From a virus (lineage: Duplodnaviria; Heunggongvirae; Uroviricota; Caudoviricetes): 12,573 nt of DNA. The stretch covers positions 1-12,573 of IMG/VR virus record IMGVR_UViG_2737471828_000010, one strand, 5' to 3'. The notes under the pieces were generated by a model. It was given only the letters and a program-made list of their open reading frames with translations. It searched no databases and was not told the DNA's origin. The translations under genes were made by a program, and so were the position numbers. Of the stretch, positions 1 through 12,573 are shown one piece after another. Positions within the stretch are counted from its first letter, which is position 1; every line of letters starts with the position of its first letter.

Positions 1-603
1 GCAGCCACGCAGACCTTTGATGGTATTGCACAGAATATGGCGGCGATGCTGACCGGCAGTGAGCAGAACTGGCGCAGCTTCACCCGTTCCGTGCTGTCCA
101 TGATGACAGAAATTCTGCTTAAGCAGGCAATGGTGGGGATTGTCGGGAGTATCGGCAGCGCCATTGGCGGGGCTGTTGGTGGCGGCGCATCCGCGTCAGG
201 CGGTACAGCCATTCAGGCCGCTGCGGCGAAATTCCATTTTGCGTCCGGGGGATTTACGGGAACCGGCGGCAAATATGAGCCAGCGGGGATTGTTCACCGT
301 GGTGAGTTTGTCTTCACGAAGGAGGCAACCAGCCGGATTGGCGTGGGAAATCTTTACCGGCTGATGCGCGGCTATGCCACCGGCGGTTATGTCGGTGGCA
401 CCGGAAGTCCGGCGCAAATGCGGCGTTCAGAGGGTATCAGATTTGAGCAGAACAACAACGTGGTGATTCAGAACGACGGTACGAATGGTCTGCCAGGTCC
501 ACAAATGCTGAAGGCGGTGTATGACATGGCCCGCAAGGGTGCCCGTGATGAAATTCAGGCACAGATGCGTGATGGTGGTCAGTTCTCCGGAGGTGGACGA
601 TGA
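1..603 (+). CDS. H: Tail tape measure protein, C-terminal fragment (5' end lies upstream of the window)
   Basis: The frame is open from base 1 with no stop before 601..603; the first in-frame ATG at 37 is not the true start. The Gly-rich C-terminal translation (...GGYVGGTGSPAQMRRSEG...KAVYDMARKGARDEIQAQMRDGGQFSGGGR) matches my recollection of the lambda gpH C-terminus. Its stop overlaps the M start (ATGA at 600..603). Confidence 0.9.
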   Translation, partial: AATQTFDGIAQNMAAMLTGSEQNWRSFTRSVLSMMTEILLKQAMVGIVGSIGSAIGGAVGGGASASGGTAIQAAAAKFHFASGGFTGTGGKYEPAGIVHRGEFVFTKEATSRIGVGNLYRLMRGYATGGYVGGTGSPAQMRRSEGIRFEQNNNVVIQNDGTNGLPGPQMLKAVYDMARKGARDEIQAQMRDGGQFSGGGR

Positions 604-929
604 AAACCTTTCGCTGGAAAGTGAAACCCGGCATGGATGTGGCTTCGGCCCCTTCCGTCAGGGAAGTGCGCTTTGGTGATGGCTATTCCCAGCGAGCGCC
701 TGCCGGACTGAATGCCGACCTGAAAACGTACAGCGTGACGCTTTCTGTTCCTCGTAAGGAGGCCACGGCGCTGGAGTCGTTTCTGGCAGAGCACGGAGGC
801 TGGAAAGCCTTTCTGTGGACGCCGCCTTATGGTTACAGGCAGATAAAGGTGACCTGCGCAAAATGGACGTCGCGGGTCAGTATGTTGCGTGTTGAGTTCA
901 GCGCAGAGTTTAAACAGGTGGTGAACTGA
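600..929 (+). CDS. M: Tail tip assembly protein M
   Basis: 109 aa, the same length as lambda gpM, and near-identical from the first residues (MKTFRWKVKPGMDVAS...VEFSAEFKQVVN). Start overlaps the H stop and the stop overlaps the L start (TGATG at 927..931), consistent with translational coupling. Confidence 0.93.
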   Translation: MKTFRWKVKPGMDVASAPSVREVRFGDGYSQRAPAGLNADLKTYSVTLSVPRKEATALESFLAEHGGWKAFLWTPPYGYRQIKVTCAKWTSRVSMLRVEFSAEFKQVVN

Positions 930-1627
930 TGCAGGATATCCGGCAGGAAACACTGAATGAATGCACCCGTGCGGAGCAGTCGGCCAGCGTGGTGCTCTGG
1001 GAAATCGACCTGACAGAGGTCGGTGGAGAACGTTATTTTTTCTGTAATGAGCAGAACGAAAAAGGTGAACCGGTCACCTGGCAGGGGCGGCAGTATCAGG
1101 CATACCCCATTCAGGGGAGCGGTTTTGAACTGAATGGCAAAGGGGCCAGCGCCAGACCAGTGCTGAGCGTGTCCAATCTGTATGGTCTGGTCACCGGGAT
1201 GGTGGAGGATTTGCAGAGTCTGGTTGGCGGAACGGTGGTCCGACGTAAGGTTTACGCCCGTTTTCTGGATGCGGTGAACTTCGTCAACGGAAACAGTGAC
1301 GCCGACCCGGAGCAGGAGGTGGTCAGCCGCTGGCGCATCGAGCAGTGTAGCGAACTGACGGCGGTTGGTGCCTCCTTTGTGCTGGCCACACCGACGGAAA
1401 CGGATGGCGCCGTTTTTCCGGGGCGCATCATGCTGGCCAACACCTGCACCTGGACCTATCGCGGCGATGAGTGCGGTTATCACGGTCCGGCGGTCGCGGA
1501 TGAATATGACCAGCCGACGTCCGATATCACGAAAGATAAATGCAGCAAATGCCTGAGCGGCTGTAAGTTTCGCAATAACATCGGTAACTTTGGCGGCTAC
1601 CTTTCCATTAACAAACTTTCGCAGTAA
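929..1627 (+). CDS. L: Tail tip assembly protein L
   Basis: 232 aa, the same length and closely similar sequence to lambda gpL as I recall it. Cysteine-rich C-terminus (CTWTYRGDECGYHG...CSKCLSGC), consistent with the Fe-S cluster described for gpL. Confidence 0.93.
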   Translation: MQDIRQETLNECTRAEQSASVVLWEIDLTEVGGERYFFCNEQNEKGEPVTWQGRQYQAYPIQGSGFELNGKGASARPVLSVSNLYGLVTGMVEDLQSLVGGTVVRRKVYARFLDAVNFVNGNSDADPEQEVVSRWRIEQCSELTAVGASFVLATPTETDGAVFPGRIMLANTCTWTYRGDECGYHGPAVADEYDQPTSDITKDKCSKCLSGCKFRNNIGNFGGYLSINKLSQ

Positions 1628-1632
1628 ATCCC

Positions 1633-2376
1633 ATGACACAGACAGAATCAGCGATTCTGGCGCACGCCCGGCGATGTGCGCCAGCGGAATCGTGCGGCTT
1701 CGTGGTGAGAACGCCGGAGGGGGACAGGTATTTACCCTGCGCGAATATTTCCGGTGAGCCGGAGGCGTATTTCCGGATGGCTCCGGAGGACTGGCTGCGG
1801 GCAGAAATGCAGGGTGAGATTGCGGCGCTGGTCCACAGTCACCCCGGTGCTCTGCCCTGGCTGAGTGAGGCCGACCGGCGGCTGCAGGTGCAGAGTGGTC
1901 TGCCGTGGTGGCTTGTCTGCCGGGGGGCGATTCACAAGTTCCGCTGTGTGCCGCATCTTACCGGGCGGCACTTTGAGCACGGGGTGACGGACTGTTATGC
2001 GCTGTTCCGGGATGCGTACCATCTGGCGGGGATTGCGCTGCCTGATTTTCATCGTGAGGATGACTGGTGGTGTCACGGTCAGAATCTCTATCTGGATAAC
2101 CTTGAAACACAGGGTTTTTACCGGGTCTCACCGCATGAGGCACAGGCAGGCGACGTGCTGCTGTGTTGTTTTGGCTCGCCTGTTGCCAATCATGCCGCCA
2201 TTTACTGTGGTGACGGCGAGCTGCTGCACCATATTCCTGAACAACTGAGCAAACGAGAGAGGTACACCGACAAATGGCAGCGACGCACACACTCCGTCTG
2301 GCGTCACCGGGCATGGCACGCATCTGCCTTTACGGGGATTTGCAACGATTTGGCCGCCGCATCGACCTGCGTGTGA
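1633..2376 (+). CDS. K: Tail assembly protein K (JAMM/MPN plus NlpC/P60 two-domain protein)
   Basis: 247 aa ORF with a JAMM-type motif H-x-H-x7-S-x2-D (HSHPGALPWLSEAD, residues 68-81) and a candidate upstream Glu in PAESCGF (residue 19), followed by an NlpC/P60-like Cys/His region (GVTDCY...NHAAIY). The classic 199-aa lambda K annotation would correspond to Met49 (nt 1777). No strong Shine-Dalgarno precedes 1633, so the exact start is uncertain. Confidence 0.85.
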   Translation: MTQTESAILAHARRCAPAESCGFVVRTPEGDRYLPCANISGEPEAYFRMAPEDWLRAEMQGEIAALVHSHPGALPWLSEADRRLQVQSGLPWWLVCRGAIHKFRCVPHLTGRHFEHGVTDCYALFRDAYHLAGIALPDFHREDDWWCHGQNLYLDNLETQGFYRVSPHEAQAGDVLLCCFGSPVANHAAIYCGDGELLHHIPEQLSKRERYTDKWQRRTHSVWRHRAWHASAFTGICNDLAAASTCV

Positions 2377-2951
2377 AAACGGGGGCAGAAGCCATCCGGG
2401 CGCTGGCCACACAGCTCCCTGCGTTTCGCCAGAAACTGAGCGACGGCTGGTATCAGGTGCGGATAGCAGGGAAAGATACAGGAGAGAGAGAGCTGTCTGC
2501 CCGTCTGCATGAGCCGCTTCCTGACGGCGCAGTGATACACCTGGTTCCTCGGACAGCCGGTGCTAAAAACGGCGGTGTTTTCCAGATTGTTCTGGGGGCT
2601 GTCGCCATTGCGGCTTCGTTTTTTACTGCAGGAGCCTCTCTGGCTATGTGGGGCGCCGCATTGAGTGCAACAACACTGAGCGCCACTACAGTCCTGTTTT
2701 CTCTCGGTGCCAGTATGATTCTGGGGGGTGTGGCGCAGATGCTGGCCCCGAAACCGAAAACGCCCCGCATGCAGACAACGGATAACGGTAAGCAGAATAC
2801 CTATTTTTCCTCACTGGATAACATGGTTGCCCAGGGCAATGTTCTGCCGGTTCTGTACGGTGAAATGCTCGTGGGATCGCGGGTGATTTCACAGGAAATC
2901 AGCACGGCTGATGAGGGGGGCGGCGGTCAGGTAGTGGTGATTGGTCGCTGA
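2274..2951 (+). CDS. I: Tail assembly protein I
   Basis: 225 aa, closely similar to lambda gpI (MAATHTL.LASPGMARICLYGDLQRFGRRIDLRVKTGAEAIRALATQLP...GGQVVVIGR). The start lies inside the 3' end of K (about 100 nt overlap, different frame), as in lambda. Confidence 0.9.
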   Translation: MAATHTLRLASPGMARICLYGDLQRFGRRIDLRVKTGAEAIRALATQLPAFRQKLSDGWYQVRIAGKDTGERELSARLHEPLPDGAVIHLVPRTAGAKNGGVFQIVLGAVAIAASFFTAGASLAMWGAALSATTLSATTVLFSLGASMILGGVAQMLAPKPKTPRMQTTDNGKQNTYFSSLDNMVAQGNVLPVLYGEMLVGSRVISQEISTADEGGGGQVVVIGR

Positions 2952-2968
2952 TGCAAATGTTTTATGTG

Positions 2969-2993
2969 AAACCGCCTCCGGGCGGTTTTTTTT
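2969..2993 (+). terminator. GC stem-loop followed by an 8-T run between I and J (intrinsic terminator or attenuator)
   Basis: aaaCCGCCtccgGGCGGtttttttt lies directly after the I stop (2949..2951) and before the J ribosome binding site (GGAGAG at 2996..3001). Confidence 0.5.
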
Positions 2994-3007
2994 ATGGAGA
3001 GTAAGTG

Positions 3008-6000
3008 ATGGGTAAAGGTGGCGGTAAGGCGCATACGCCCCGTGAAGCCAGAGATAACCTGAAATCCTCCCAGTTGCTGAGTGTGATTGACGCCATCAGT
3101 GAAGGACCGGTTTATGGTCCGGTTGACGGGCTGAAAAGTGTCCGCCTGAATGGTACGCCGGTACTGGACAGCGGGGGGAATACCAACTTTTCCGGTGTCA
3201 CGGTGGTGTTCCGTTCCGGTGAACAGGAGCAGACACCGCCGGAGGGGTTTGAATCCTCCGGCTCCGAGACGGTACTGGGTGCGGAAGTGAAATACGACAC
3301 GCCGATAACCCGGACCATCACGTCGGCAAACATCGACCGTCTGCGCCTGACCTTCGGGGTGCAGGCACTGGTGAAAACCACCTCAAAGGGGGACAGGGAG
3401 CCGTCGGAAGTCCGCCTGCTGGTTCAGATACAGCGTAATGGTGGCTGGGTGACGGAAAAAGACATCACCATTAAGGGCAAAACCACCTCGCAGTATCTGG
3501 CATCGGTGGTGGTGGATAACCTGCCGCCGCGCCCGTTTAATATCCGGATGCGCAGGATAACGCCGGACAGCACCACGGACCAGTTGCAGAACAAAACGGT
3601 CTGGTCGTCATACACCGAAATCATCGATGTGAAACAGTGCTACCCGAACACGGCACTGGTCGGTGTGCAGGTGGATTCTGAGCAGTTCGGCAGCCAGCAG
3701 GTGAACCGCACTTACCATTTTCGTGGTCGTATTCTGCAGGTTCCGTCGAACTATAACCCGCAGACGCGGCAATACAGCGGTATCTGGGACGGAACGTTAA
3801 AACCGGCATACAGCAACAACCCGGCCTGGTGTCTGTGGGATATGCTGACCCACCCGCGCTACGGCATGGGGAAACGTCTTGGTGCGGCAGATGTGGATAA
3901 ATGGGCGCTGTATGTCATCGGCCAGTACTGCGACCAGTCAGTGCCGGACGGTTTTGGCGGCACGGAGCCGCGCATCACCTGTAATGCCTGGCTGACCACA
4001 CAACGTAAGGCGTGGGATGTGCTCAGCGATTTCTGCTCGGCGATGCGCTGTATGCCGGTATGGAACGGGCAGACGCTGACGTTCGTGCAGGACCGGCCAT
4101 CGGATAAGGTGTGGACCTATAACCGCAGTAATGTGGCGATGCCGGGTGATGGCGCGCCGTTCCGCTACAGCTTCAGCGCCCTGAAGGACCGCCATAATGC
4201 CGTTGAGGTGAACTGGATTGACCCTGACAACGGCCAGGAGACGGCGACAGAGCTTGTGGAGGACACGCAGGCCATTGCCCGTTACGGTCGTAACGTCACG
4301 AAGATGGATGCCTTTGGCTGTACCAGTCGTGGGCAGGCGCACCGCGCCGGGCTGTGGCTGATTAAAACAGAACTGCTGGAAACGCAGACCGTGGACTTCA
4401 GCGTGGGTGCTGAAGGGCTTCGCCATGTACCGGGCGATGTCATTGAAATCTGCGATGATGACTATGCCGGTATCAGCACCGGCGGGCGCGTGCTGGCGGT
4501 AAACAGCCAGACCCGGACGCTGACGCTCGACCGTGAAATCACGCTGCCATCCTCCGGTACCACGCTGATAAGCCTGGTTGACGGAAGTGGCAATCCGGTC
4601 AGCGTGGAGGTCCAGTCCGTCACCGACGGCGTGAAGGTAAAAGTGAGCCGTGTTCCTGACGGCGTTGCAGAATACAGCGTGTGGGGGCTGAAGCTGCCGA
4701 CGCTGCGTCAGCGCCTGTTTCGCTGTGTGAGTATCCGTGAGAACGATGACGGCACGTATGCCATCACCGCCGTGCAGCATGTACCGGCAAAAGAGGCCAT
4801 CGTGGATAACGGGGCGCACTTTGACGGCGACCAGAGCGGCACGGTGAATGGTGTCACGCCGCCAGCGGTGCAGCACCTGACTGCCGAAGTCACCGCAGAC
4901 AGCGGGGAATATCAGGTGCTGGCGCGCTGGGACACGCCGAAGGTGGTGAAGGGGGTGAGCTTCCTGCTCCGTCTGACCGTAACAGCGGACGAAGGCAGTG
5001 AGCGGCTGGTCAGCACGGCCCGGACGACGGAAACCACATACCGCTTCACGCAACTGGCGCTGGGGAACTACAGGCTGACAGTCCGGGCGGTAAATGCGTG
5101 GGGACAGCAGGGCGATCCGGCATCGGTATCGTTCCGGATTGCCGTACCAGCAGCGCCGTCGCGGATTGAGCTGACACCGGGCTATTTTCAGATAACCGCC
5201 ACGCCGCATCTTGCGGTTTATGATCCGACGGTGCAGTTTGAGTTCTGGTTCTCGGAAAAGCGGATTGCGGATATCAGGCAGGTTGAAACCAGCGCGCGTT
5301 ATCTTGGTACGGCGCTGTACTGGATAGCCGCCAGTATCAATATCAAACCGGGCCATGATTATTACTTTTATATCCGCAGTGTGAACACCGTTGGCAAATC
5401 GGCATTCGTGGAGGCTGTTGGTCAGCCGAGTGATGATGCATCCGGTTATCTGGATTTTTTCAAAGGCGAGATAGGGAAAACCCATCTGGCTCAGGAGCTG
5501 TGGACGCAGATTGATAACGGTCAGCTTGCGCCTGACCTGGCTGAAATCAGGACGTCCATTACGGATGTCAGCAATGAAATCACACAGACCGTCAATAAGA
5601 AACTGGAAGACCAGAGTGCAGCGATCCAGCAGATACAGAAGGTTCAGGTTGATACAAATAATAATCTGAACAGCATGTGGGCTGTGAAGCTGCAACAGAT
5701 GAAGGACGGACGCCTTTATATTGCGGGTATCGGTGCCGGTATTGAGAATACGCCAGCAGGAATGCAGAGTCAGGTGCTGCTGGCGGCAGACAGGATTGCG
5801 ATGATTAATCCTGCGAATGGCAACACAAAGCCGATGTTTGTTGGTCAGGGTGATCAGATATTCATGAATGAAGTGTTCCTGAAATATCTGACGGCTCCCA
5901 CCATTACCAGTGGCGGTAATCCTCCGGCGTTTTCCCTGACTCCGGACGGGCGGCTGACGGCGAAAAATGCGGATATCAGCGGTAACGTGAACGCGAACTC

Positions 6001-6487
6001 CGGGACACTCAACAACGTCACGATAAATGAGAACTGCCGGATTCTGGGAAAACTGTCAGCCAACCAGATTGAAGGCGATATTGTTAAAACAGTGGGTAAG
6101 GCTTTTCCCCGGGACTCCCGGGCACCGGAGCGGTGGCCATCAGGGACCATTACCGTCAGGGTTTATGACGATCAGCCGTTTGACCGGCAAATTGTTATTC
6201 CGGCGGTGGCATTCAGTGGCGCTAAGCATGAGAGAGAGCATACTGATATTTACTCCTCATGCCGTCTGATAGTGCGGAAAAACGGTGCTGAAATTTATAA
6301 CCGTACCGCGCTGGATAATACGCTGATTTACAGTGGTGTTATTGATATGCCAGCAGGCAGAGGTGTAATGACACTGGAGTTTTCGGTATCAGCATGGCTG
6401 GTGAATAACTGGTATCCCACCGCAAGTATCAGCGATTTGCTGGTTGTGGTGATGAAAAAATCCACAGCCGGTATCACGATTAGCTGA
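3008..6487 (+). CDS. J: Tail tip / host specificity protein J (central tail fiber)
   Basis: About 1159 aa. The N-terminus [34 protein letters not shown]... and most of the length are closely similar to lambda gpJ as I recall it. The ORF track begins at GTG 3005, but ATG 3008 with GGAGAG 6 nt upstream is the more likely start. The last ~150 aa and a block near nt 5460-5700 diverge from lambda. Confidence 0.93.
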
Positions 6488-6505
6488 ATTTTATAATCCA
6501 TATAC

Positions 6506-6531
6506 TGGCGCCAGAAATGGCGCCTTTTTTA
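6506..6531 (+). terminator. Intrinsic terminator downstream of J
   Basis: Palindromic stem GGCGCC (6507..6512) / GGCGCC (6519..6524) with loop agaaat, followed by TTTTTT (6525..6530), 20 nt after the J stop. Confidence 0.65.
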
Positions 6532-6584
6532 TTGTTATTCCTGAATCCTCTCTTCCGGGGCTGACATTGACTTATGGAGTACAT

Positions 6585-8306
6585 ATGGCCGTACAGATAT
6601 CTGGTGTACTGAAAGACGGTGCGGGTAAACCGGTGCAGGCGTGTTCAATTGAATTGCGGTCCAGAAAAACGAGTCCGACGGTGATTGTGCACATTGTGGC
6701 GGAATGTATTACGGACAGTAACGGGCGGTATTTAATCGAAGCCGAGCCAGGATTTTATGATGTTTTTCTTCTCCGTGAAGGGTGGGCTCCGGTAAAAGCC
6801 GGTGAGATTTATGTCACACCGACGGATAAGCCGGATACGCTGAATGCATTTCTGGATGCTCCCAAAGATGGCGATTTGCGTCCTGAGGTGATGAAACGCT
6901 TTGAGATAATGGTGAATACCGTTATTACGCTGTCTGAGCAGGTTACCCGTGATAAGGAGGCAACAGGCGCAGACGCCGCGGCAGCGGCAGAATCGGCGTC
7001 CGCTGCCCGGGAAAGTGAAAGGAAATCGCAGAATTATGAGGTGCAGTCTCAGAAAAATGCAGAGTCTGCAGCCGGAAGTGCGCAGGAGGCCGGACAATAT
7101 GCTGTGGAGGCTGCACAGGCAAGAGATAATACGCAGACCCTTGCTGATGCGGTGCAGAAAAATGCAGAGGTTGTGGCAGAACAGCGTCAGCAGGTGAATA
7201 TACTGGCTGCAGAAATGGCAGAAAATGCCGGACAGGTTCAGCAGGATAAACAGGATACTGAGCGGCTGCTGGAGCAGGCACAACAGGCAGCCAGTGAGTC
7301 TTCAGCCAGTGCCGTGGAGTCGGGGACGCATGCCAGCGAAGCTGCACAGAGTGCACGGCAGGTAAGCAGTGATTTACAGAAGACGGTAACGGCACGTAAT
7401 GAGGCAGAGGGTTTTGCCACAGAGGCCGCCAGTCGTGCAGAAGAGAGTGCACAGATAAAAGCGCAGACGGAGTCCGTGGCTCTGAATGTTCAGCATGTGG
7501 CAGACAGTGTTGTGGCTGTAAGCCAGTCTGTGGAGCTACAGGCCGGGCAGGTGCAGCAACTGGTCAGCCAGGCGGAAGACAGTGCCACGACAGCAGGTGA
7601 ACATGAGCAGGGGGCACTGAAGGCACTGGAGGAGGCCAGGGAGATTGCAAAAACGCCAGGACCACAGGGAGAGCCAGGACCGCAGGGGGAGACCGGCCCA
7701 CAGGGCCCCAGTGGTGAAAAGGGAGAGAAAGGGGACCGGGGCGATACCGGGCCTCAGGGAGAAAAAGGTGAGAAAGGCGATAAAGGTGATACCGGTGCCC
7801 GGGGAGCTACCGGCCCACAGGGGCCTCAGGGACCCATGGGACCCAGCGGAGTTTACCCGGAAGACGGGATAAAGACTGCGAAAAAATTCACGGGTATTCT
7901 GGCTCATGGTTTTATGTATTCTGACCTTCAGTTTCCGTTGCTGAAATATAACCACTACCTTGCCTGTGAAGACCACCCCGTTCCGGGTGCCGCGGGAAAT
8001 TATTCGTATGGTCTGATGTGGCAGGTTCCGACGAATGAGAATGTTTCAGGTCAGATTTTCCTTAACTGTATGGGACAGGCATTCATCAGGGCTTACAGCG
8101 GACTGGGTACCACTTCATGGTGGCAGTTTGCCGGTCGTCCGGTAGCCGGTGGTGTGGGGAGTTACCTGTTCTGTGCTTCTCAGGATGCGGTCAGTTACGG
8201 AGATGAACTGGCCGGAGAGCGGCTTGACCCGGTACAGTCAGGAATATGGATGGCCTGCGGAAATGCAGAAGCTGAAGAGAAAATGCTTTTTCTGAGGGTG
8301 AAATAA
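6585..8306 (+). CDS. stf: Side tail fiber protein (Stf-like) with an Ala/Gln/Glu-rich shaft, a collagen-like tract and a distinct C-terminal domain
   Basis: N-terminus [24 protein letters not shown]... resembles the lambda Stf N-terminus ([17 protein letters not shown]...). ATG 6585 has GGAG 5 nt upstream; the track start TTG 6567 is less likely. Residues ~125-360 form a low-complexity A/Q/E/S-rich region, and the C-terminal ~150 aa is a globular-looking domain I cannot assign. Confidence 0.8.
7659..7850 (+). repeat. Collagen-like Gly-X-Y repeat tract (64 residues) inside the tail fiber gene
   Basis: Uninterrupted G-X-Y periodicity, [64 protein letters not shown], visible in the DNA as repeated ggN-ccN-cag and ggN-gaN-aaa units. 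Confidence 0.85.
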
Positions 8307-8917
8307 TGGATACCAGGAATTCAGAAGCGGACGTGCGCAATGCCCGTTTTAATGAAGACGGCAGCATTACCTGTGAGGTGTTCATGGCAGACCGTTCTGA
8401 TGACAGTCATCGGGTATATGTACCTTATACTGCCAGAGCTTCAGACCCGACAGAATTCGGGTTAAGGCTCTGGTCAGGACTGATATCAGGGGACCTTGGT
8501 GAAGTCACGCCGTTTGTGGTGACAGAGGAGATACTGGAAAAGGCCAGAAATCAGAAATACGGTGAAATCAGTCGCTGGCGTGACAGCCAGGAGAACAGCA
8601 GTTTTGTTTTTGAATTCAGTGGTCATCGCTGGGATGCCGGAAAGGCGTCACAGTCCAGACTGACACCTGTTGTTGCGGTGGCAGGAAACGGGCTGTTGCC
8701 GGAGCATTTTTTCTGGACGGATGCGGATAATCAGGATGTCACTCTGACGCCGGAAGAGCTGATACAACTGGATACTGCGATGAATGCGGCGATGGTGATG
8801 CAGGGGTTTAAAATCCACGAACGCCAGCGCCGGATGAAAGAAGAAGTGGCAGGGCTGACCGCACTGCCGGATATTCGTGCGTATCCTGTTGGCTGGCCGG
8901 AGGGTGATGATGAGTAA
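8306..8917 (+). CDS. Putative tail fiber assembly protein (Tfa-like chaperone)
   Basis: 203 aa ORF whose ATG overlaps the fiber stop (TAATG at 8304..8308), with a GAGGGTG ribosome binding site upstream. Position immediately after the fiber gene and a C-terminal segment (...TPEELIQLDTAMNAAMVMQGFKIHERQRRMKEEVAGLTALPDIRAYPVGWPE) reminiscent of Tfa C-termini. Assigned by context plus weak similarity. Confidence 0.6.
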   Translation: MDTRNSEADVRNARFNEDGSITCEVFMADRSDDSHRVYVPYTARASDPTEFGLRLWSGLISGDLGEVTPFVVTEEILEKARNQKYGEISRWRDSQENSSFVFEFSGHRWDAGKASQSRLTPVVAVAGNGLLPEHFFWTDADNQDVTLTPEELIQLDTAMNAAMVMQGFKIHERQRRMKEEVAGLTALPDIRAYPVGWPEGDDE

Positions 8918-9290
8918 GTTCACCACACCGGCCATTCTGGAGATGCTGGATGATTACCGCTGGCGGCTGGTTGAGCCGTTTGAATTCTGGCTGACGGATA
9001 ACCCGGATGATGTGATTTATGTTCCGGAGGGATATGTGACGGACCTTGCCAGTGTGCCACGGCTTCTGTGGGCTCTGTTCCCGCCGCATGGTCGTTATGC
9101 GAAAGCGGCGATTATTCATGACTGGCTGTATGACAATGCCCTGCGCACGAAGGCGGAAGCGGACAGGATATTTCTGGATGCGATGACGGTGCTGGGAGTT
9201 CCACGCTGGCGCAGACGGTTGATGTATCTTGCGGTAAGGTTGTTCGGGAAAGGGAAATACAGCGACACGCAACAGGGGACCTGTTGCTGA
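8907..9290 (+). CDS. DUF1353-like small protein (tail-fiber-associated, function unknown)
   Basis: About 127 aa from the ATG pair at 8907/8910, with GGAGGG at 8899..8904, overlapping the stop of the preceding gene. Translation MMSKFTTPAILEMLDDYRWRLVEPFEFWLTD...YVTDLASVPRLLWALFPPHGRYAKAAIIHDWLY resembles the DUF1353 signature as I remember it. The track start GTG 8877 is less likely. Confidence 0.55.
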   Translation: MMSKFTTPAILEMLDDYRWRLVEPFEFWLTDNPDDVIYVPEGYVTDLASVPRLLWALFPPHGRYAKAAIIHDWLYDNALRTKAEADRIFLDAMTVLGVPRWRRRLMYLAVRLFGKGKYSDTQQGTCC

Positions 9291-9320
9291 AAAAAGTCTG
9301 CCATACAGATGTATGGCAGA
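9290..9320 (-). terminator. Leftward intrinsic terminator candidate (H1)
   Basis: Perfect stem CTGCCATA (9298..9305) / TATGGCAG (9312..9319), flanked on the + strand 5' side by six A's, which gives a 3' U-run on the - strand transcript. Confidence 0.5.
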
Positions 9321-9493
9321 AAAGGTATCCAAGGGAGAAGACACTGCAGTGCAGTATCCCTTATGGTCGGCGGTGATTATATAACCACAGAACGGCGCAT
9401 CAAACAGTTTTACGTACCAGTTGTTAAATTTGTGTATTATATCAAACAAATTGGTAACATGCTGCTGTGTGTAAATGTGATGTTAACATGGTG

Positions 9494-9529
9494 ATATGTG
9501 TTACTGACTGGTATTGCCTGTTCACCTGG
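9494..9529. repeat. ~36 nt repeat, copy 1 of 2 (atatgtgttactgactggtattgcctgttcacctgg)
   Basis: Matches 10569..10609, which carries a short internal insertion (ccacg/accacgt). Both copies are in the ORF-poor AT-rich region. Confidence 0.6.
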
Positions 9530-9564
9530 TCTGTGAAGATATGCAACATGGCCCATGTTGTAGC

Positions 9565-9597
9565 AAAAAAAGCCTGCCATACAGATATATGGCAGGC
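9565..9597 (-). terminator. Leftward intrinsic terminator candidate (H2, paralog of H1)
   Basis: Stem GCCTGCCATA / TATGGCAGGC with loop cagata, preceded on + by seven A's. On the - strand this reads as a GC stem followed by TTTTTTT. Same stem as H1 with a 1-nt loop difference. Confidence 0.6.
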
Positions 9598-9805
9598 AAA
9601 CGTCTGTTACGGGAAAACAAATGAATGTCGGGTATAGTACCCCCTTACTTGACTCCTTCACAATTATGCATCAATAATGAAACATATAAAGCATTTGTAT
9701 TTTCTTATTGCTGGTTTTGTGTATTGCGTCTCAAAACTAAATTATTTTATTACTCTCATAATAAATGAGGTAAATTATATATATAGTTATTTATTCTGTT
9801 TTTAT

Positions 9806-9834
9806 AAAAAGAAGCCCACAGATTACTGTGGGCT
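9806..9834 (-). terminator. Leftward intrinsic terminator candidate (H3)
   Basis: Stem AGCCCACAG / CTGTGGGCT with loop atta, preceded on + by tataaaaagaa (a U-rich tail on the - strand). Confidence 0.55.
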
Positions 9835-10085
9835 AAGCATTAGCATTATTTATATTAGTATAGTTACGGTTGCTGTAAGCATATTAGCTTACGGAAATGT
9901 TGATAACTCTGATGGGAATCACAAAAAAATACCAGTGCTGAAAATGACAGTACTGGTAAAAATATGATGAGTATTTGCAAAAAATACAACCGAATTGCTC
10001 TGTAAGGTTCACTACCTCTTTTATTCTACTATAAATTATAGTACATAGTTCTGTGATACTTATCACGCTGTATATTCATTGGTAT

Positions 10086-10110
10086 AAAAAGGCCCGTATG
10101 GATACGGGCC
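10086..10110 (-). terminator. Leftward intrinsic terminator candidate (H4)
   Basis: Stem GGCCCGTA / TACGGGCC with loop tgga, preceded on + by tataaaaa. Confidence 0.55.
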
Positions 10111-10207
10111 TGGCTTACGGGATAGGCTAACTGAGTAAGTAGGGTTATGGCTTACTCGCCGGCAGTATACCATATAAAACAACGGACAATTCTTTGCGGT
10201 AAATCAT

Positions 10208-10236
10208 AAAAAAAGACCCGTACCGTACGTGCGGGT
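10208..10236 (-). terminator. Leftward intrinsic terminator candidate (H5)
   Basis: Stem ACCCGTAC / GTGCGGGT (one non-Watson-Crick position) with loop cgtac, preceded on + by seven A's. Confidence 0.45.
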
Positions 10237-10354
10237 GTTAATTGCTGGTGAAGCTGTCAGAGGTGCATATTATTATAATAACGCTTGTAGACGTTTGTTA
10301 TTATTTATGCCCTCTATTACTGGTACTGTGATTTCCATCACAAAAATACATTAT

Positions 10355-10382
10355 AAAAAGAAAGCCCGCAGATTATGCGGGC
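10355..10382 (-). terminator. Leftward intrinsic terminator candidate (H6, paralog of H3)
   Basis: Stem GCCCGCA / TGCGGGC with loop gatta, preceded on + by tataaaaagaaa. Differs from H3 by a compensatory base-pair change (A-T in H3, G-C in H6). Confidence 0.55.
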
Positions 10383-10401
10383 AATAGCTTATGCATGAGA
10401 T

Positions 10402-10426
10402 GAACGACTCCGGGTCGTTTATTTTT
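10402..10426 (+). terminator. Weak rightward hairpin with T-run (possible + strand terminator)
   Basis: Stem AACGAC / GTCGTT with loop tccgg, followed by tatttttc. Short, AT-rich stem. Confidence 0.3.
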
Positions 10427-10568
10427 CTTAATAAGAAGGACTACATTTATATTCTACTATGTAAGTATGGTATTGATGATGTGAAGTATATCTCAAATTA
10501 ACGCAATAAGAAAAAGCAACAACCCATTTCTGAATGTGAGAGAACTGCTAATATAGCAATATGTGTTC

Positions 10569-10609
10569 CTGACTGGTACCACGTATTGCCTGTTCCAGGA
10601 GCATATTTG
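10569..10609. repeat. ~36 nt repeat, copy 2 of 2 (atatgtgttcctgactggtaccacgtattgcctgttccagg)
   Basis: Direct repeat of 9494..9529. Confidence 0.6.
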
Positions 10610-10665
10610 CCTGGATTCAGATTGCTCGTAATTCACCACGGCTATAAATCGTAAAGAAAATTGCA

Positions 10666-10718
10666 GCACGCCCTATGCAAGAACGTGCCACGGCTGGCTG
10701 GCAAACTTTCGATAGTGC
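10666..10718. repeat. ~50 nt imperfect direct repeat, left copy (hairpin with loop tatgcaaga ... cgatagtgc), left flank of the peptidase cassette
   Basis: gcacg-ccctatgcaagaa-cgtgc-cacggctggctggcaaactttcgatagtgc aligns with 12269..12321 (first 15 nt tatgcaagaacgtgc identical; roughly 80 percent identity over the remainder). Confidence 0.65.
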
Positions 10719-10998
10719 GAGTATTGAATGATTTCCAGTCGTTATTGATTCTACGCATTAATTTATGAACAAACTACTTATCTGTGGTCTTTCGGTCTGT
10801 AATAGGGGCCCTGTCTGAAATGGAGTTTCAGGATTAAGCGATATCGTACTCACCCTTAGTCCCACCTGATAAATCTGGAGAACGGAAGCACTGCCAGATG
10901 ATGGTGGTGGCTACAATTACTCACACTCAATATTCGGAGCAATCACGTACATCATCACGATGCTAGGAATGCGGAGTTTGATGACTGTCCAGTGATGT

Positions 10999-11029
10999 AA
11001 AAAGAGACCCCGGCGTAGTAGCCGAGGTC
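10999..11029 (-). terminator. Leftward intrinsic terminator candidate for the peptidase gene
   Basis: Stem GACCCCGGC / GCCGAGGTC (one mismatch) with loop gtagta, 22 nt downstream of the - strand stop at 11051..11053. On the - strand it is followed by tctcTTTTT. Confidence 0.5.
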
Positions 11030-11050
11030 CTCAATCAGAAACTACAATAT

Positions 11051-12055
11051 TCACTGAGTGCCTTCATCTGGTTGCTCTGCTGGTAAGGTTCCAGCCTCTT
11101 CTTCAATTTCCGCATGTTTTCCATCGCTTCCCTGGACAGGTTCATCCCTTGGCGGTTCTGCTCTTCCTGAATTTTGGTCAGAGATTTCATCTCCTTCCTG
11201 AATTCTGCTGTTGTCATGGGAATCTTCCTCTGCGTTAGTTGTTTCATATTGTTTTTTAGGAGTTAAATCTTTAATCACCGGTTTGTCGAAGATAGAGATT
11301 TCGCCTGACGAAATCATCTCACCAAGAACTTCGTACAGGTTGGCTGCAAAGTCTGTAGGACTCTCAACATGGTTGAATAGTTCCCTCGCCTCTTTACGGT
11401 CTATCACAAAACCATGGGCTGGATATCCAGCGATCAACTTGCCTAAGGAGCTTTCCTTAAGATTTTTCGAGTGACTATTCAAACGCTCCCCATAGGAAAG
11501 CGCTATGTTCATTGCTCGTTGATGCTCCCCGAGTTTGATGGGGTCTATCTGTGAGGCCATCGGCGATATGATTGCTTCAGTAAGCTTAGCAGCAATATCT
11601 GCAGACATCTTCGTGCTAATTTGGTTTCTGTACTTTATATCAAGTACGTATGATCTAAAGGTCGAAATAGCGCACTCTTTTATTTCATCAATCGCCGTTG
11701 CGATAACAAGGCCCGAGCTCAATTCGCCGATCTCATCATTTTTCTTAAGTTGGATGTCTAGAGGACCAAGCTCACCCATATCACCAATCACGAGCTTATG
11801 AGCGGCGACAGCCATCAAGGTTCCAGCACTTTTGCAAGGGCCAACAACTAGAACGGTGATGTGTTCATAGTTGTGTTGCAAAGCGCGGCCAATTCTATAT
11901 CCTGCGCTGGGATCACCGCCATAGGTAGCGACGCAAAAAAGAACATTTTTTTGTAAACCATGGTTAGTTTTTCTTTCTTTAATCGCTTTGGTGATGTCGT
12001 GATGACCAGAGCGGTGAACATCGCCTATGTATACGTAAACGTCTGTATCTTGCAT
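11051..12055 (-). CDS. Stand-alone ClpP/SppA-fold serine peptidase-like protein (S49/SDH-like) with an acidic low-complexity C-terminal tail
   Basis: 334 aa ORF with ribosome binding site AGGGA 5 nt upstream of the ATG (- strand). N-terminal ~220 aa follows the ClpP-fold pattern: ATYGGDPSAGYRIGRAL echoes the ClpP NSPGGSVTAG segment, and VVGPCKSAGTLMAVAAHK echoes the ClpP/SppA nucleophile segment (GQAASMG type), giving a candidate catalytic Ser in CKSAG. The last ~70 aa are Asp/Glu-rich and low complexity. No His in the position of the ClpP catalytic His, so a Ser-Lys dyad (SppA-like) is possible. Confidence 0.6.
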   Translation of the reverse strand: MQDTDVYVYIGDVHRSGHHDITKAIKERKTNHGLQKNVLFCVATYGGDPSAGYRIGRALQHNYEHITVLVVGPCKSAGTLMAVAAHKLVIGDMGELGPLDIQLKKNDEIGELSSGLVIATAIDEIKECAISTFRSYVLDIKYRNQISTKMSADIAAKLTEAIISPMASQIDPIKLGEHQRAMNIALSYGERLNSHSKNLKESSLGKLIAGYPAHGFVIDRKEARELFNHVESPTDFAANLYEVLGEMISSGEISIFDKPVIKDLTPKKQYETTNAEEDSHDNSRIQEGDEISDQNSGRAEPPRDEPVQGSDGKHAEIEEEAGTLPAEQPDEGTQ

Positions 12056-12268
12056 TTTAATCCCTATGAATAAAATGGTTGAATTTAATGCTGTTCCTCA
12101 GCCAAAGCACTATATCGATAACCAAAATACCTCAGATTTGTCGAGAAAACTATCTGGAAAATTAGGCTAACTCTTTGAATCTTCGGAATGCAAAAGAGAT
12201 ACTTTCTCTGGATGTGCGCCAGGTTGATGTGTAAGTATGGCGGTCAGAATAGTCTCGAAAAACCGCAG

Positions 12269-12321
12269 GCACGTTGTATGCAAGAACGTGCTGTGGTTGG
12301 CAGGTGAACTTCCGATAGTGC
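12269..12321. repeat. ~50 nt imperfect direct repeat, right copy; also a terminator-like hairpin directly downstream of the DinI-like gene
   Basis: gcacgtt-gtatgcaag-aacgtgc then tgtggttggcaggtgaacttccgatagtgc. On the - strand the hairpin is followed by a T-run (complement of aaaaa at 12258..12262). Confidence 0.6.
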
Positions 12322-12324
12322 TCA

Positions 12325-12573
12325 TTAGTGAACAAACCACTCGTCAGCAGACTCCCAGGTATCTTTCAGAGTTTCCTGCACAAAAGTTTTAGCTGAATCT
12401 TTATCGGCTGTGCGCGTAACAGAAAGGCCATCGTTGCTGGTGGCTTTTACGATCACCTCTACATCGTCATAACGCTTACTGATGCGTCGGGTTAATTCTT
12501 CCTTTAACGCATCCACAGCACTGGTTGGCATTTTAGTCATTTTTTCTTTGGCTATGCAGATTTCAATACGCAT
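12325..12573 (-). CDS. dinI: DinI-family protein (DNA damage-inducible protein I-like, prophage-encoded)
   Basis: 82 aa: [37 protein letters not shown]...[15 protein letters not shown]. Start and C-terminal WESAD-WFV motif match E. coli DinI as I recall it (MRIEVTIAK...ETWESADDWFVSE). The start codon is the last three bases of the window, so the promoter is outside it. Confidence 0.85.

Follow-up and report, generated by a model that had tools for sequence, protein, structure and literature searches.

Positions 9291–12573 of the window (the whole 12,573-nt stretch of viral DNA that was analysed) are best explained, with fairly good confidence, as the distal arm, read leftward, of a lambdoid prophage of E. 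coli located in the 5' end of dusA, a counterpart of the lambda b region. We hold the explanation as a whole, an accessory arm in three parts that includes candidate small-RNA units, with similar confidence. Rather than one module, the region is a mosaic in which three pieces have separate histories, and most of its AT-rich part is without any protein gene. Taken together, it is an ordinary accessory arm with a modestly interesting non-coding part.

Composition and Orientation

GC content falls from 0.559 (positions 1–9290) to 0.410 (9291–12573), the second part being divisible into 0.365 (9291–10660) and 0.442 (10661–12573). The maximum-likelihood single GC change point is base 9289, one base ahead of the stop codon of the DUF1353 gene (8910–9290, + strand; Pfam PF07087, 114.5 bits; PHROG 1158, tail assembly chaperone), which is tail-fibre-associated and ends the rightward tail operon; there is a second change point at 10567. 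The DUF1353 stop codon is the boundary of both composition and strand: all nine supported genes in 1–9290 (M/L/K/I/J tail-tip, tail-fibre N-terminal protein, DUF4376, and DUF1353) are encoded on the + strand, and the only two supported genes thereafter, for an SDH-type ClpP-fold serine protease (11051–12055) and a DinI-like protein (12325–12573), are on the − strand. GC3 is 0.50–0.67 in the nine tail genes, compared with 0.41 in the protease gene and 0.43 in the DinI-like gene, and synonymous codon usage differs between tail genes and later genes (pooled G-test, G = 167.6, 41 df, p = 3e-17). A preliminary description of this DNA had proposed an AT-rich shift with a strand switch at about 9290, few ORFs beyond it, and convergence of the leftward region with the late (tail) operon in a lambdoid layout. 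Each of these is confirmed: GC and codon usage both change across 9290, the two later genes and nine intergenic hairpins are all on the − strand, PGAP annotates nothing in 9291–10660 in two independent genomes, and the layout resembles the lambda b region.

Prophage Context and Mosaic Structure

The arm lies between the last gene of the tail-fibre module and the integrase, which is just beyond the window end. In the 98% identical locus of GXU-23-25-310, a tyrosine integrase comes next and then dusA, and a dusA fragment 49 kb away is the other prophage end; prophages and islands integrated at the 5' end of dusA form a class described in PMC4482086. The basal layout is found in phiSTEC1575-Stx2k (tail genes, then leftward dinI and int), where the slot holds a hypothetical gene, dinI and int only. 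The slot is empty in QA-1986 630, and in the prophage of strain R1 it contains a YadA-like gene, a hypothetical gene, and sitABCD. Slot contents thus differ among otherwise closely related prophages, and the pieces of the arm recur elsewhere in other company, which supports the preliminary view of a horizontally exchanged accessory region between tail-fibre genes and integrase. The claim that this region forms one accessory module did not hold, since its three pieces have different distributions.

Positions 9496–10600 are 88.8% identical to unannotated DNA of the R1-type prophage, located there between cargo genes and sitABCD. The block common to R1 is edged by a direct repeat, D2 (left copy 9481–9535, right copy 10546–10607), for which the local alignment of units U1 and U6 (described below) provides evidence (z = 9.1). 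The adjoining segment, 10608–10778 (− strand), consists of the last 18 nt of a dinI gene, the conserved non-coding X element with its hairpin/terminator T7 (10663–10691), and a match to the first ~22 nt of ykgJ; it matches the dinI ends of Stx phages as well as the DNA that precedes ykgJ in K-12 and in other strains. By these matches, the segment is the scar of recombination with another, older dinI-X-ykgJ operon. A 35-aa "capsid protein" annotated by PGAP within it has no family support in Pfam or PHROG.

The integrase-proximal module (10663–12573), which contains the DinI-like gene, the conserved non-coding element X, and the protease gene, is present at ~96% identity in >3000 of 5426 E. coli genomes. 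It also adjoins a prophage with a Mu-like tail at prfC and another at dusA. The DinI-like and protease genes, previously regarded as cargo behind the tail operon, are part of an int-dinI-protease end module beside dusA, one that is also found joined to the prophage with a Mu-like tail.

Terminators and Candidate Transcription Units

Between 8800 and 12573 there are 11 terminator-like sites, against 2.5 ± 1.4 in shuffled sequences. Seven are intergenic and on the − strand: T1 (9297–9320), T2 (9572–9597), T3 (9813–9834), T4 (10090–10111), T6 (10364–10382), T7 (10663–10691), and T8 (11005–11030), the last with 10 pairs (7 G-C) and a CTTTTT tail, 20 nt downstream of the protease stop codon. Two more − strand hairpins were read by eye (T5, 10215–10237, followed by seven U; and 12263–12296, after dinI), making all nine intergenic hairpins after 9290 leftward; the six terminators reported previously were real, and too low a count. 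The other four matches are intragenic (two on the − strand in the protease gene; two on the + strand, in the DUF1353 and protease genes) and look like chance. The AT-rich region has no excess of promoter-like sites relative to shuffled sequences (8 vs. 8.8).

The AT-rich stretch 9291–10607 (36.5% GC) contains six small promoter-like/terminator units. The longest ORFs in 9291–10660 have no Pfam or PHROG support, no tRNA was found in the AT-rich stretch, and no Rfam family reaches even E = 0.01. Judged from their sequences, the units are most likely independent small transcription units, namely small-RNA genes of ~65–200 nt. Each unit, from U6 to U1, would be transcribed leftward from its own promoter-like site to an intrinsic terminator; as a by-product of their orientation, the terminators would also halt leftward transcription before antisense entry into the tail operon.

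U1 (9289–9376, − strand) is a candidate small RNA with a 5' stem-loop (9331–9362) and T1 followed by six U, folding at −30.3 kcal/mol (z = −5.9); its promoter-like site (TTGATG, 16 nt, TATAAT; 9376–9403, − strand) is a consensus match only, at 10/12 positions. The T1 hairpin is common to the R1 prophage, where it directly follows the DUF1353 gene. U2 (9565–9659, − strand) is the founding member of what we term the B family, to which U1 also belongs; its inner hairpin is enclosed by a GGG...CCC outer helix, and T2 is followed by seven U. The promoter-like site of U2, from the consensus scan (TTTATA, 16 nt, CATAAT; 9663–9690, − strand), recurs with identical hexamers and spacing in the U2 copy of R1 and the two copies of an unrelated genomic island (four copies, found independently), and its −10 is invariant across all aligned B-family copies (alignment A5, U1 excluded). 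Candidate U3 (9808–10057, − strand) extends for ~200 nt from a promoter-like site at 10028–10057 to T3; the 3' ends of U3 and U6 are paralogous, T3 and T6 differing by a compensatory change from A-T to G-C, and the frame of the U3 ORF 9884–10066 is broken in R1 by 1- and 2-nt indels. Candidate U4 (10085–10206, − strand), ending in T4, is the least conserved unit and has stem mismatches in R1. Candidate U5 (10200–10305, − strand) comprises a promoter-like site (10272–10301), a short body, and the weaker hairpin T5, with a fold z-score of only −0.85; its −10 (TATAAT) is retained in the island copies. Candidate U6 (10358–10497, − strand) has a promoter-like site (TTCACA, 18 nt, CATAGT; 10456–10485), a hairpin (10404–10420), T6, and a conserved UCCUUCUUA motif in its body; the hairpin covaries, being AACGAC/GTCGTT in the window and AATGAC/GTCATT in the island copies. 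Folding energies of the units are equally good on the opposite strand, and no complementarity longer than 13 nt was found between the units and the rest of the prophage.

The B family is present in another prophage as well as in the genomic island. Its occurrence is rare, in 37 of 5426 E. coli genomes, and the species-representative genomes and viral contigs searched lack it. A covariance model built from six copies, with U1 left out, finds U1 at full length (51 bits, E about 1e-8). Across the family, promoter and terminator have been preserved well and the body has varied. Eight of nine distinct sequences retain the GGG/CCC outer helix; most lineages have the inner hairpin, built from differing sequence, and it is weak in the R1 copy that follows DUF1353. 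Column-wise covariation is thin among these few, related sequences, with two pairs changing on both sides and 10 of 500 shuffles reaching the observed score. U1 and U2 can plausibly be read as small-RNA genes, and the units of the stretch may encode undescribed small RNAs.

Conservation of the Units and Alternative Functions

A somewhat unlikely alternative is that 9291–10607 is functionless debris, composed of 3' ends, terminators, and intergenic bits of lost cargo genes, and that the units are not genes. Debris would suit the way the region is pieced together at recombination joints (repeat D2, the dinI scar, and the chimeric U1, whose body is new and whose terminator is B-type), the real cargo genes that adjoin the R1 block and are missing from the window, the IS200 remnant that occupies the place of U3–U4 in the island, the decay of U4 and T5, and the rarity of the AT-rich block sequences. 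However, most promoter-like and terminator segments are kept much better than their surroundings over 68–74% diverged copies. Identity to the island copies is 0.89–0.91 for terminators T2 and T6 and 0.79–0.80 for the promoter-like segments of U2 and U5, compared with 0.41–0.67 for unit bodies (for U2, terminator 0.91, promoter-like site 0.79, and body 0.41; for U5, promoter 0.80 and body 0.62), although T5 (0.59) and the U6 promoter-like segment (0.62) are no better kept than the bodies. A point against the small-RNA reading is that conservation is lowest in the bodies, in which any RNA function would lie. The identical promoter hexamers and spacing in four copies, and hairpins upheld by differing sequences and compensatory changes, also argue against debris, as does the lower divergence between window and R1 at stem positions (4.8%, vs. 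11.1% at other positions; p = 0.044).

We regard it as unlikely that the units serve mainly as a one-way stack of terminators, insulating the rightward late operon from antisense transcription. Such leftward transcription would come from an SOS-induced dinI promoter, from the genes for integrase and protease, or from the early-left operon reading across attP when the phage is circular; the GXU prophage does have its early-left genes oriented like int-dinI-protease across the att junction. The uniform direction of the nine intergenic hairpins is consistent with this role, as is the position of the block between convergent genes, with leftward genes upstream, in the window, R1, and the island, where the two B copies are inverted such that each faces its flanking gene. 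Yet three terminators (after dinI, T8, and T7) already precede the block, so that six more seem excessive; conserved promoter-like sites and upstream segments would be left unexplained; and one R1 B copy would be reached by no nearby leftward transcription, the genes immediately to its right being on the + strand. Small-RNA genes, with insulation as a by-product, remain our preferred reading of the units.

The DinI-Protease Module and Its Probable SOS Control

The DinI-like gene (12325–12573, − strand; 82 aa; Pfam PF06183, 70.1 bits, cut-off 24.2; PHROG 189) has its start codon at the window end. It is followed by X' (12160–12324, − strand), a copy of the conserved dinI-downstream element that has a 40-nt deletion, repeats D3 and D7, and the hairpin 12263–12296 followed by UUUUU. 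The protease gene (11051–12055, − strand) encodes 334 aa and belongs to PHROG 21683 (E 2e-198, function unknown). Its product scores 27 bits against Pfam PF01972, under the 31.3 cut-off, and likewise scores under the curated NCBIfam cut-off; it has an acidic, low-complexity C-terminal tail. A PADLOC search gave no match for the protease, and no solved structural relative was found by sequence.

Binding to RecA filaments and modulation of the SOS response are properties of DinI proteins, and have been established for the E. coli member. In two homologous loci, one 98% identical to the window and one from a second genome, the interval from the int stop to the dinI start contains two LexA boxes; this position falls just outside the window, and the boxes were read in these homologues only. 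The downstream box (TACTGTATACAAACACAGTA) is the same in both loci; the upstream box reads TACTGTTTATCCATACAGT in one and CACTGTTTATCCATACAGC in the other, a difference of a single flanking base. The DinI-like gene is thus probably SOS-controlled rather than constitutive, and is predicted to be repressed in the undamaged lysogen and induced by SOS. The integrase-proximal module would then read from a LexA-box promoter through the DinI-like gene, X', and the protease gene to T8, with DNA damage turning on at least dinI if the window copy is controlled as in its homologues.

The preliminary description envisaged an acquired cargo region that can be expressed from the lysogen independently of the late genes; in its full form, this reading is a single cargo module, acquired whole and expressed constitutively in the lysogen (lysogenic conversion). 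Low GC, distinct codon usage, and a slot that varies among related prophages would fit such a module, as would the protease homologues of other genera, which are directly downstream of a repressor gene, a slot typical of lysogen-expressed genes. We nonetheless consider it improbable: the three pieces differ in distribution, and the dinI-protease pair is an integrase end module common to unrelated prophages. Expression from the lysogen is unlikely for DinI, given the LexA boxes directly upstream in homologues, and no promoter was assignable to the protease gene in the promoter-like site scan.

The LexA-regulated operon of Gifsy prophages begins with dinI, after which come a small antirepressor gene and irsA (PMC3121763). 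An equivalent induction module here, in which the antirepressor would inactivate a non-cleavable repressor, could draw on the LexA boxes in homologues and a 52–57-aa ORF after dinI, but it is largely refuted and very improbable: the 57-aa ORF overlapping X' has no homologue among 5.8 billion proteins and no similarity to GftA, the Gifsy-2 protein between dinI and the next gene; the element is broken by the 40-nt deletion and its substitutions are without synonymous bias (alignment A7, own reading); and the homologous prophage has a LexA-family repressor of cleavable S24-type architecture. There is equally little prospect that the AT-rich units encode small proteins (type I toxins or small-protein morons), several hydrophobic-looking ORFs of 20–96 aa notwithstanding, as most ORFs are disrupted in the 89% identical R1 copy by 1-, 2-, 4-, 5-, or 14-nt indels or stops, window–R1 substitutions have no third-position excess, start codons read from the sequences are unconserved among B-family lineages, and neither protein families nor Rfam antitoxin families are matched.

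Comparison With Known Systems

Prophages and islands of enterobacteria encode trans-acting small RNAs, such as those of the IsrK, DicF, and AgvB type. The units resemble these as short stand-alone units in AT-rich acquired DNA, each combining a sigma-70-like promoter, a U-tailed intrinsic terminator, and one or two stem-loops, but differ in matching no Rfam family and in their poorly conserved bodies. Gifsy dinI operons (Lemire, Figueroa-Bossi and Bossi 2011, PMC3121763) likewise have a prophage dinI homologue with LexA boxes ahead of it and further genes behind it; unlike them, the window has no antirepressor homologue, its operon is at the integrase end rather than in the nin region, and the repressor of the homologous prophage is cleavable. 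Positions 37–106 of the protease are homologous to the core of PF01972 (SDH_protease)/NCBIfam NF047768, ClpP-fold serine proteinases that are listed here together with the S49 SppA-like peptidases as comparable proteins, and PF01972 is precomputed for most of the 2848 homologues of the protease; the protease differs from the family in scoring below curated cut-offs, in its long acidic C-terminal tail, and in being prophage-borne.

A classical moron of a lambdoid phage is a protein gene equipped with a promoter and a terminator of its own, whereas most window units are without an ORF. Comparable to the arm, besides such morons, is the lambda b region (ea47-ea31-ea59), which is likewise located after the tail-fibre genes and beside the att/int end, reads leftward and convergent with the late operon, is lower in GC, non-essential, and variable among relatives, and contains the X element of the window in the same orientation, between ea31 and ea47. 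The window arm differs in lying on the same att side as the integrase, so that it remains beside int in the prophage, and in its content of dinI, an SDH-type protease gene, and non-coding units.

Composition, orientation and prophage context of the accessory arm

The preliminary description placed a shift in base composition, together with a switch of coding strand, at about position 9290, and computation bears out both. GC content is 0.559 before the boundary vs. 0.410 after it (sliding GC profile of the window), and a likelihood scan detects a sharp change point at base 9289, one base before the final + strand gene reaches its stop codon; the GC minimum (0.365) extends over 9291–10660, and a second change point falls at 10567. 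GC3 is 0.50–0.67 in nine + strand genes vs. 0.41 and 0.43 in two - strand genes, and synonymous codon usage differs strongly between the genes of the two strands (G = 167.6, 41 df, p = 3e-17). Supported genes are on the + strand before the boundary, where Pfam assigns lambda-type tail-tip proteins M to J, a tail-fibre N-terminal protein (stf-N), DUF4376 and DUF1353, and on the - strand after it (a DinI-like protein and a ClpP-like "SDH" protease). Terminator-like sites are also concentrated here: a consensus scan of 8800–12573 recovers 11, vs. 2.5 ± 1.4 in shuffled sequences. Matches on the + strand are confined to coding sequence, and the predicted intergenic terminators of the - strand (a GC-rich hairpin followed by a U tract) number seven by scan and two more by eye, so that the six originally reported are an undercount.

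Within the tail operon itself, GC content dips to 0.47–0.53 at 5250–7000 and 8000–8750 (the C-terminal part of J and the tail-fibre genes), and similarity to most lambdoid phages ends at 6036–6534; these features would fit an exchange of host-range modules. The spacer between J and the tail-fibre gene (6443–6530, +) contains a hairpin with a U6 tail and a sub-threshold isrK-like Rfam match (20.5 bits, E = 0.78).

The tail genes are ~91% identical to those of lambdoid coliphages, and the whole of 9000–12573 is 98% identical to one Escherichia coli chromosome, that of strain GXU-23-25-310. In this strain a tyrosine integrase gene and then dusA come after the DinI-like gene, and on the opposite side, 49 kb away, there is a fragment of dusA; the window therefore belongs to a lambdoid prophage whose integration site is the 5' end of dusA. 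Integrases that use this site are a described class (PMC4482086). The early-left genes of the GXU-23-25-310 prophage are co-oriented with int, dinI and the protease gene across the att junction, and leftward early transcription could therefore enter the arm in the circular phage. In lambda, leftward early transcription does run into the b region. The GXU-23-25-310 prophage has a major capsid gene split by IS621 and carries an IS66-type element among its tail genes (29098–31402 and 33217–35832 of record L080); to judge from these insertions, this copy is probably defective.

Mosaic structure of the arm

Description of this DNA as an accessory arm of mosaic build is well supported. Comparison with the prophages of E. 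coli R1 and QA-1986 630 and with phiSTEC1575 upholds the proposal of a variable, horizontally exchanged slot: its contents differ among relatives, and thus the slot is variable. Simplest of all is the arrangement in the Stx2k phage phiSTEC1575, in which the tail genes are followed by a single hypothetical gene and then by dinI and int, both leftward, and the QA-1986 630 prophage has no cargo at all after DUF1353. The proposal of one single accessory module does not hold, as the arm comprises three separate pieces.

Of 5426 complete E. coli genomes, 3123 carry the integrase-proximal module (10663–12573) at ~96% identity. One copy forms the end of a Mu-like-baseplate prophage beside prfC, and another lies in a second such prophage at dusA, where it is preceded by the same integrase. 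Junction of the int-dinI-protease module to a Mu-like-baseplate prophage at dusA indicates that it has been exchanged between unrelated phage types. The combination of int, a LexA-boxed dinI and a ClpP-like protease is common to prophages with unrelated tails, and over half of the complete E. coli genomes have it. In GCA_012249745.1 (6912–10589 of record L069), integrase, DinI and protease genes at dusA are joined to a Mu-like-baseplate prophage with an invertase.

A non-coding block (9496–10600) is shared, at 88.8% identity, with unannotated DNA of R1-type prophages. These encode the same DUF4376 and DUF1353 proteins, but the block there follows a YadA-like and a hypothetical gene and precedes sitABCD. 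More distant copies of parts of the block (68–74% identity) occur in a genomic island that also carries fimbrial, OmpA-like and YadA-like genes; there, the third and fourth of the small units described below (U3–U4) are replaced by a remnant of IS200, which is a separate insertion. The block is flanked by a direct repeat of ~50 nt; an insertion sequence or MITE is rejected, the bounding repeats being direct, not inverted, and transposase being absent. The third piece is a scar (10608–10778), composed of the last 18 nt of a dinI gene, a conserved non-coding element (X) and a match to the first ~22 nt of ykgJ.

Candidate transcription units in the gene-free stretch

The AT-rich stretch 9291–10607 has no PGAP annotation in two genomes, its longest ORFs have no protein-family support, and it contains no tRNA genes. 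In the R1 copy, stop codons or indels (of 1, 2, 4, 5 or 14 nt) disrupt most of these ORFs, and no codon-position bias is seen among the substitutions that separate R1 from the window. An array of type I toxins or small proteins is rejected, given ORFs that are broken and lack family support. A tandem or periodic array is likewise rejected: Tandem Repeats Finder reported nothing, and paralogy is partial only (terminators T1/T2 and T3/T6, the sequences upstream of units U2 and U5, and the direct repeat D2).

The - strand of this stretch comprises six units, U6 to U1, each closed by a hairpin and U tract (terminators T6 to T1) and most with a promoter-like site upstream. In the scan, a predicted promoter-like site and a terminator enclose a short body in U1, U2, U3, U5 and U6; such promoter-like sites are not enriched over shuffles in this AT-rich DNA. 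Relative to the island copies, terminators T2 and T6 are conserved at 0.89–0.91 identity and the promoter-like segments of U2 and U5 at 0.79–0.80, vs. 0.41–0.67 for the bodies; T5 (0.59) and the promoter-like segment of U6 (0.62) are exceptions, being no better conserved than bodies. U1 and U2 belong to a unit type (the B family) in which the scan independently found TTTATA, 16 nt and CATAAT in four copies.

Seven B-family copies were aligned, and a covariance model built from the transcribed parts of six retrieves U1, which was outside the training set, at 51 bits. An outer GGG/CCC helix is retained in eight of nine distinct sequences, and the terminator is also common to the aligned members. 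The inner hairpin differs in sequence in most lineages and is weak in one copy, which makes column-by-column scoring impossible. Over the family structure, 96.8% of cells are paired, but only two pairs change on both sides and 10 of 500 shuffles attain the observed score, so that formal covariation is thin. Compensatory changes occur once in the U6 hairpin and once between the paralogous terminators T3 and T6, and window and R1 diverge by 4.8% in stems vs. 11.1% at other positions (p = 0.044). Folding energy is uninformative as a test of strand, because both strands fold equally well.

The B family is present in only 37 of 5426 E. coli genomes and in none of the other collections scanned; its hairpin was not found in species-representative genomes. 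Two viral-contig matches to terminator-hairpin patterns proved to be GC-rich coding DNA, and another pattern gave none; the 52 matches to the T6 pattern are generic terminators of unrelated phyla. Full-text literature searches with the hairpin sequences returned nothing relevant. A search of the whole window against Rfam 15 yielded sub-threshold, chance-level matches only (ncS54, E = 0.058; CssrB, 0.12; isrK, 0.78), and the units therefore match no RNA family described there. Complementarity to potential targets in 64 kb of prophage sequence is limited to matches of chance length, up to 13 nt.

In the T1 hairpin (9297–9320), the 4-nt loop is ATCT (- strand) in the window and AGAT in GXU-23-25-310 (12298–12321 of record L001), with identical stems; this loop inversion is a palindrome "flip" of the template-switching kind. 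The island has two inverted B-family units face to face, 1.3 kb apart (3538–3681 and 5001–5138 of record L005), and between them an unannotated 72-aa ORF (3861–4079, -) with the appearance of a real protein.

The simplest reading of U6 to U1 is as separate small transcription units and candidate small RNAs, although we regard the small-RNA reading as possible rather than probable. There are two main rivals. The stretch could be a pure terminator stack, which would not account for the conserved promoter-like segments. Alternatively, it could be functionless debris; lower divergence in stems and the conservation of T2 and T6 point away from debris. Annotation pipelines leave this 1.3 kb blank, yet it is organised as small units with a promoter-like site and a terminator, and its transcription signals bear marks of selection; such units, if transcribed, would constitute a new small-RNA family in mobile DNA. 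Their one-way terminators would also keep leftward transcripts, antisense to the tail genes, out of the tail operon. The wider proposal is that 9291–10607 is an array of independently transcribed small-RNA genes, among them the previously undescribed B family, which would move among E. coli prophages and genomic islands as promoter-body-terminator cassettes with diversifying bodies; this, too, we consider less likely than not.

Element X

Element X (~110 nt) is non-coding, forms a covarying hairpin, and occurs twice on the - strand of the window (10630–10760 and 12160–12324). It is found after dinI in Stx phages and before ykgJ in E. coli K-12. Phage lambda also has a copy, likewise pointing leftward, in the interval from ea31 to ea47 (2501–2563 of record L067; lambda 24156–24218), where the annotation of NC_001416 has no feature. 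An element located downstream of dinI is thereby conserved even in lambda, at a spot left blank on that map.

At 10637–10692 (+), Rfam reports a CssrB match (24.9 bits, E = 0.12), far under the gathering score and covering the 3' hairpin of the model only; the match is the antisense of the X hairpin. CssrB, a Shigella chromosomal sRNA, may run antisense to the ykgJ 5' region and terminate at this two-way hairpin. The same strand has a 35-aa ORF (10661–10768, +), labelled "capsid protein" by PGAP and annotated in other genomes as fragments of an "S24 family peptidase" or "LexA family regulator." This ORF is antisense to X and lacks family support, and so the PGAP labels appear spurious.

DinI-like gene and SOS control

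The DinI-like protein scores above threshold for PF06183 (70.1 bits vs. a cut-off of 24.2) and under the equivalog cut-off for NCBIfam PRK10597 (69.5 vs. 111 bits), and is therefore a DinI-like paralogue rather than E. coli dinI itself. In each of two homologous loci, the interval from the int stop to the dinI start holds two predicted LexA boxes, both with a perfect CTGT-N8-ACAG core; their position is immediately outside the window and was read in the homologues. The boxes predict that dinI is SOS-induced rather than constitutive in the lysogen, and for this gene the suggestion of expression from the lysogen is not supported. Inside the window, LexA box matches are at chance level and away from both cargo genes, with none near the protease gene. 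DNA damage would thus activate a LexA-box promoter driving dinI, and the transcript would either stop at the hairpin of X', the copy of X after dinI, or continue through the protease gene to the - strand terminator T8. For E. coli DinI, binding to RecA filaments and modulation of the SOS response are established, as cited in PMC3121763.

In Gifsy prophages, dinI is followed in a LexA-controlled operon by irsA and a small gene for an antirepressor (PMC3121763), and the ORF after dinI was therefore examined as an antirepressor. This candidate is rejected: the ORF has no homologues among 5.8 billion proteins and no similarity to the Gifsy-2 protein at the corresponding position (the expected GftA/GfoA homology), the window copy has a 40-nt deletion relative to all other copies, and substitutions show no synonymous bias (read by eye from the alignment). 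A non-cleavable repressor of Gifsy type is also rejected, the repressor of the homologous prophage being annotated as a 224-aa LexA-family protein (ymfK-like).

Predicted SDH-type ClpP-fold protease

The protease scores under threshold for both PF01972 (27 bits vs. a cut-off of 31.3) and NF047768 (35.9 vs. 250 bits). It has 2848 relatives, most with PF01972, and those at 59–85% identity carry precomputed PF01972 assignments; it is therefore a divergent relative rather than a threshold-passing member. A G-x-x-K-S-A-G stretch, read by eye only, occupies the place expected for a predicted catalytic serine. The protein falls in PHROG 21683, a family of unknown function; sequence search found no solved structure of a relative, and full-text searches with the family name gave nothing relevant. 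The promoter scan assigned no promoter to the gene, which may be expressed by read-through from dinI or from a weak promoter of its own.

Homologues (~47–77% identical) in Klebsiella, Serratia and Bartonella prophages lie ~80–300 nt downstream of a cI-like repressor gene and co-oriented with it (records L070–L079), and in some Serratia copies a small YoaK-like ORF separates the two genes. A repressor-adjacent slot is typical of exclusion genes. By analogy with its relatives in this slot, the protease could serve the prophage in superinfection exclusion or defence, a role so far unrecognised. No known anti-phage defence system of PADLOC-DB 2.0 is indicated, as none of its models matched DinI, DUF1353 or the protease at E up to 0.01.

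Comparison with known systems

It is a textbook feature of lambdoid prophages that swappable, AT-rich, leftward accessory DNA separates their tail genes from the attachment site. The arm has the tail-fibre genes on one side and the att/int end on the other, is distinct in composition and codon usage from the structural genes, and has content that varies among related phages, with pieces recurring elsewhere. It adds one more example to a known kind, which comprises the lambda b region or, more broadly, morons, and it shares both position and leftward orientation with the lambda b region. We regard the arm as an ordinary prophage accessory region with a modestly interesting non-coding component: a well-dissected example that introduces no new principle. 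The parts that known kinds leave unexplained are the B-family units, element X and the protease. The Gifsy dinI operon differs in that the arm has no GftA/GfoA homologue and the homologous prophage has a LexA-family repressor. In lambda, the repressor-adjacent slot is occupied by rexAB, expressed in the lysogen; homologues of the protease occupy this slot in other genera, whereas the E. coli gene instead follows a LexA-boxed dinI.
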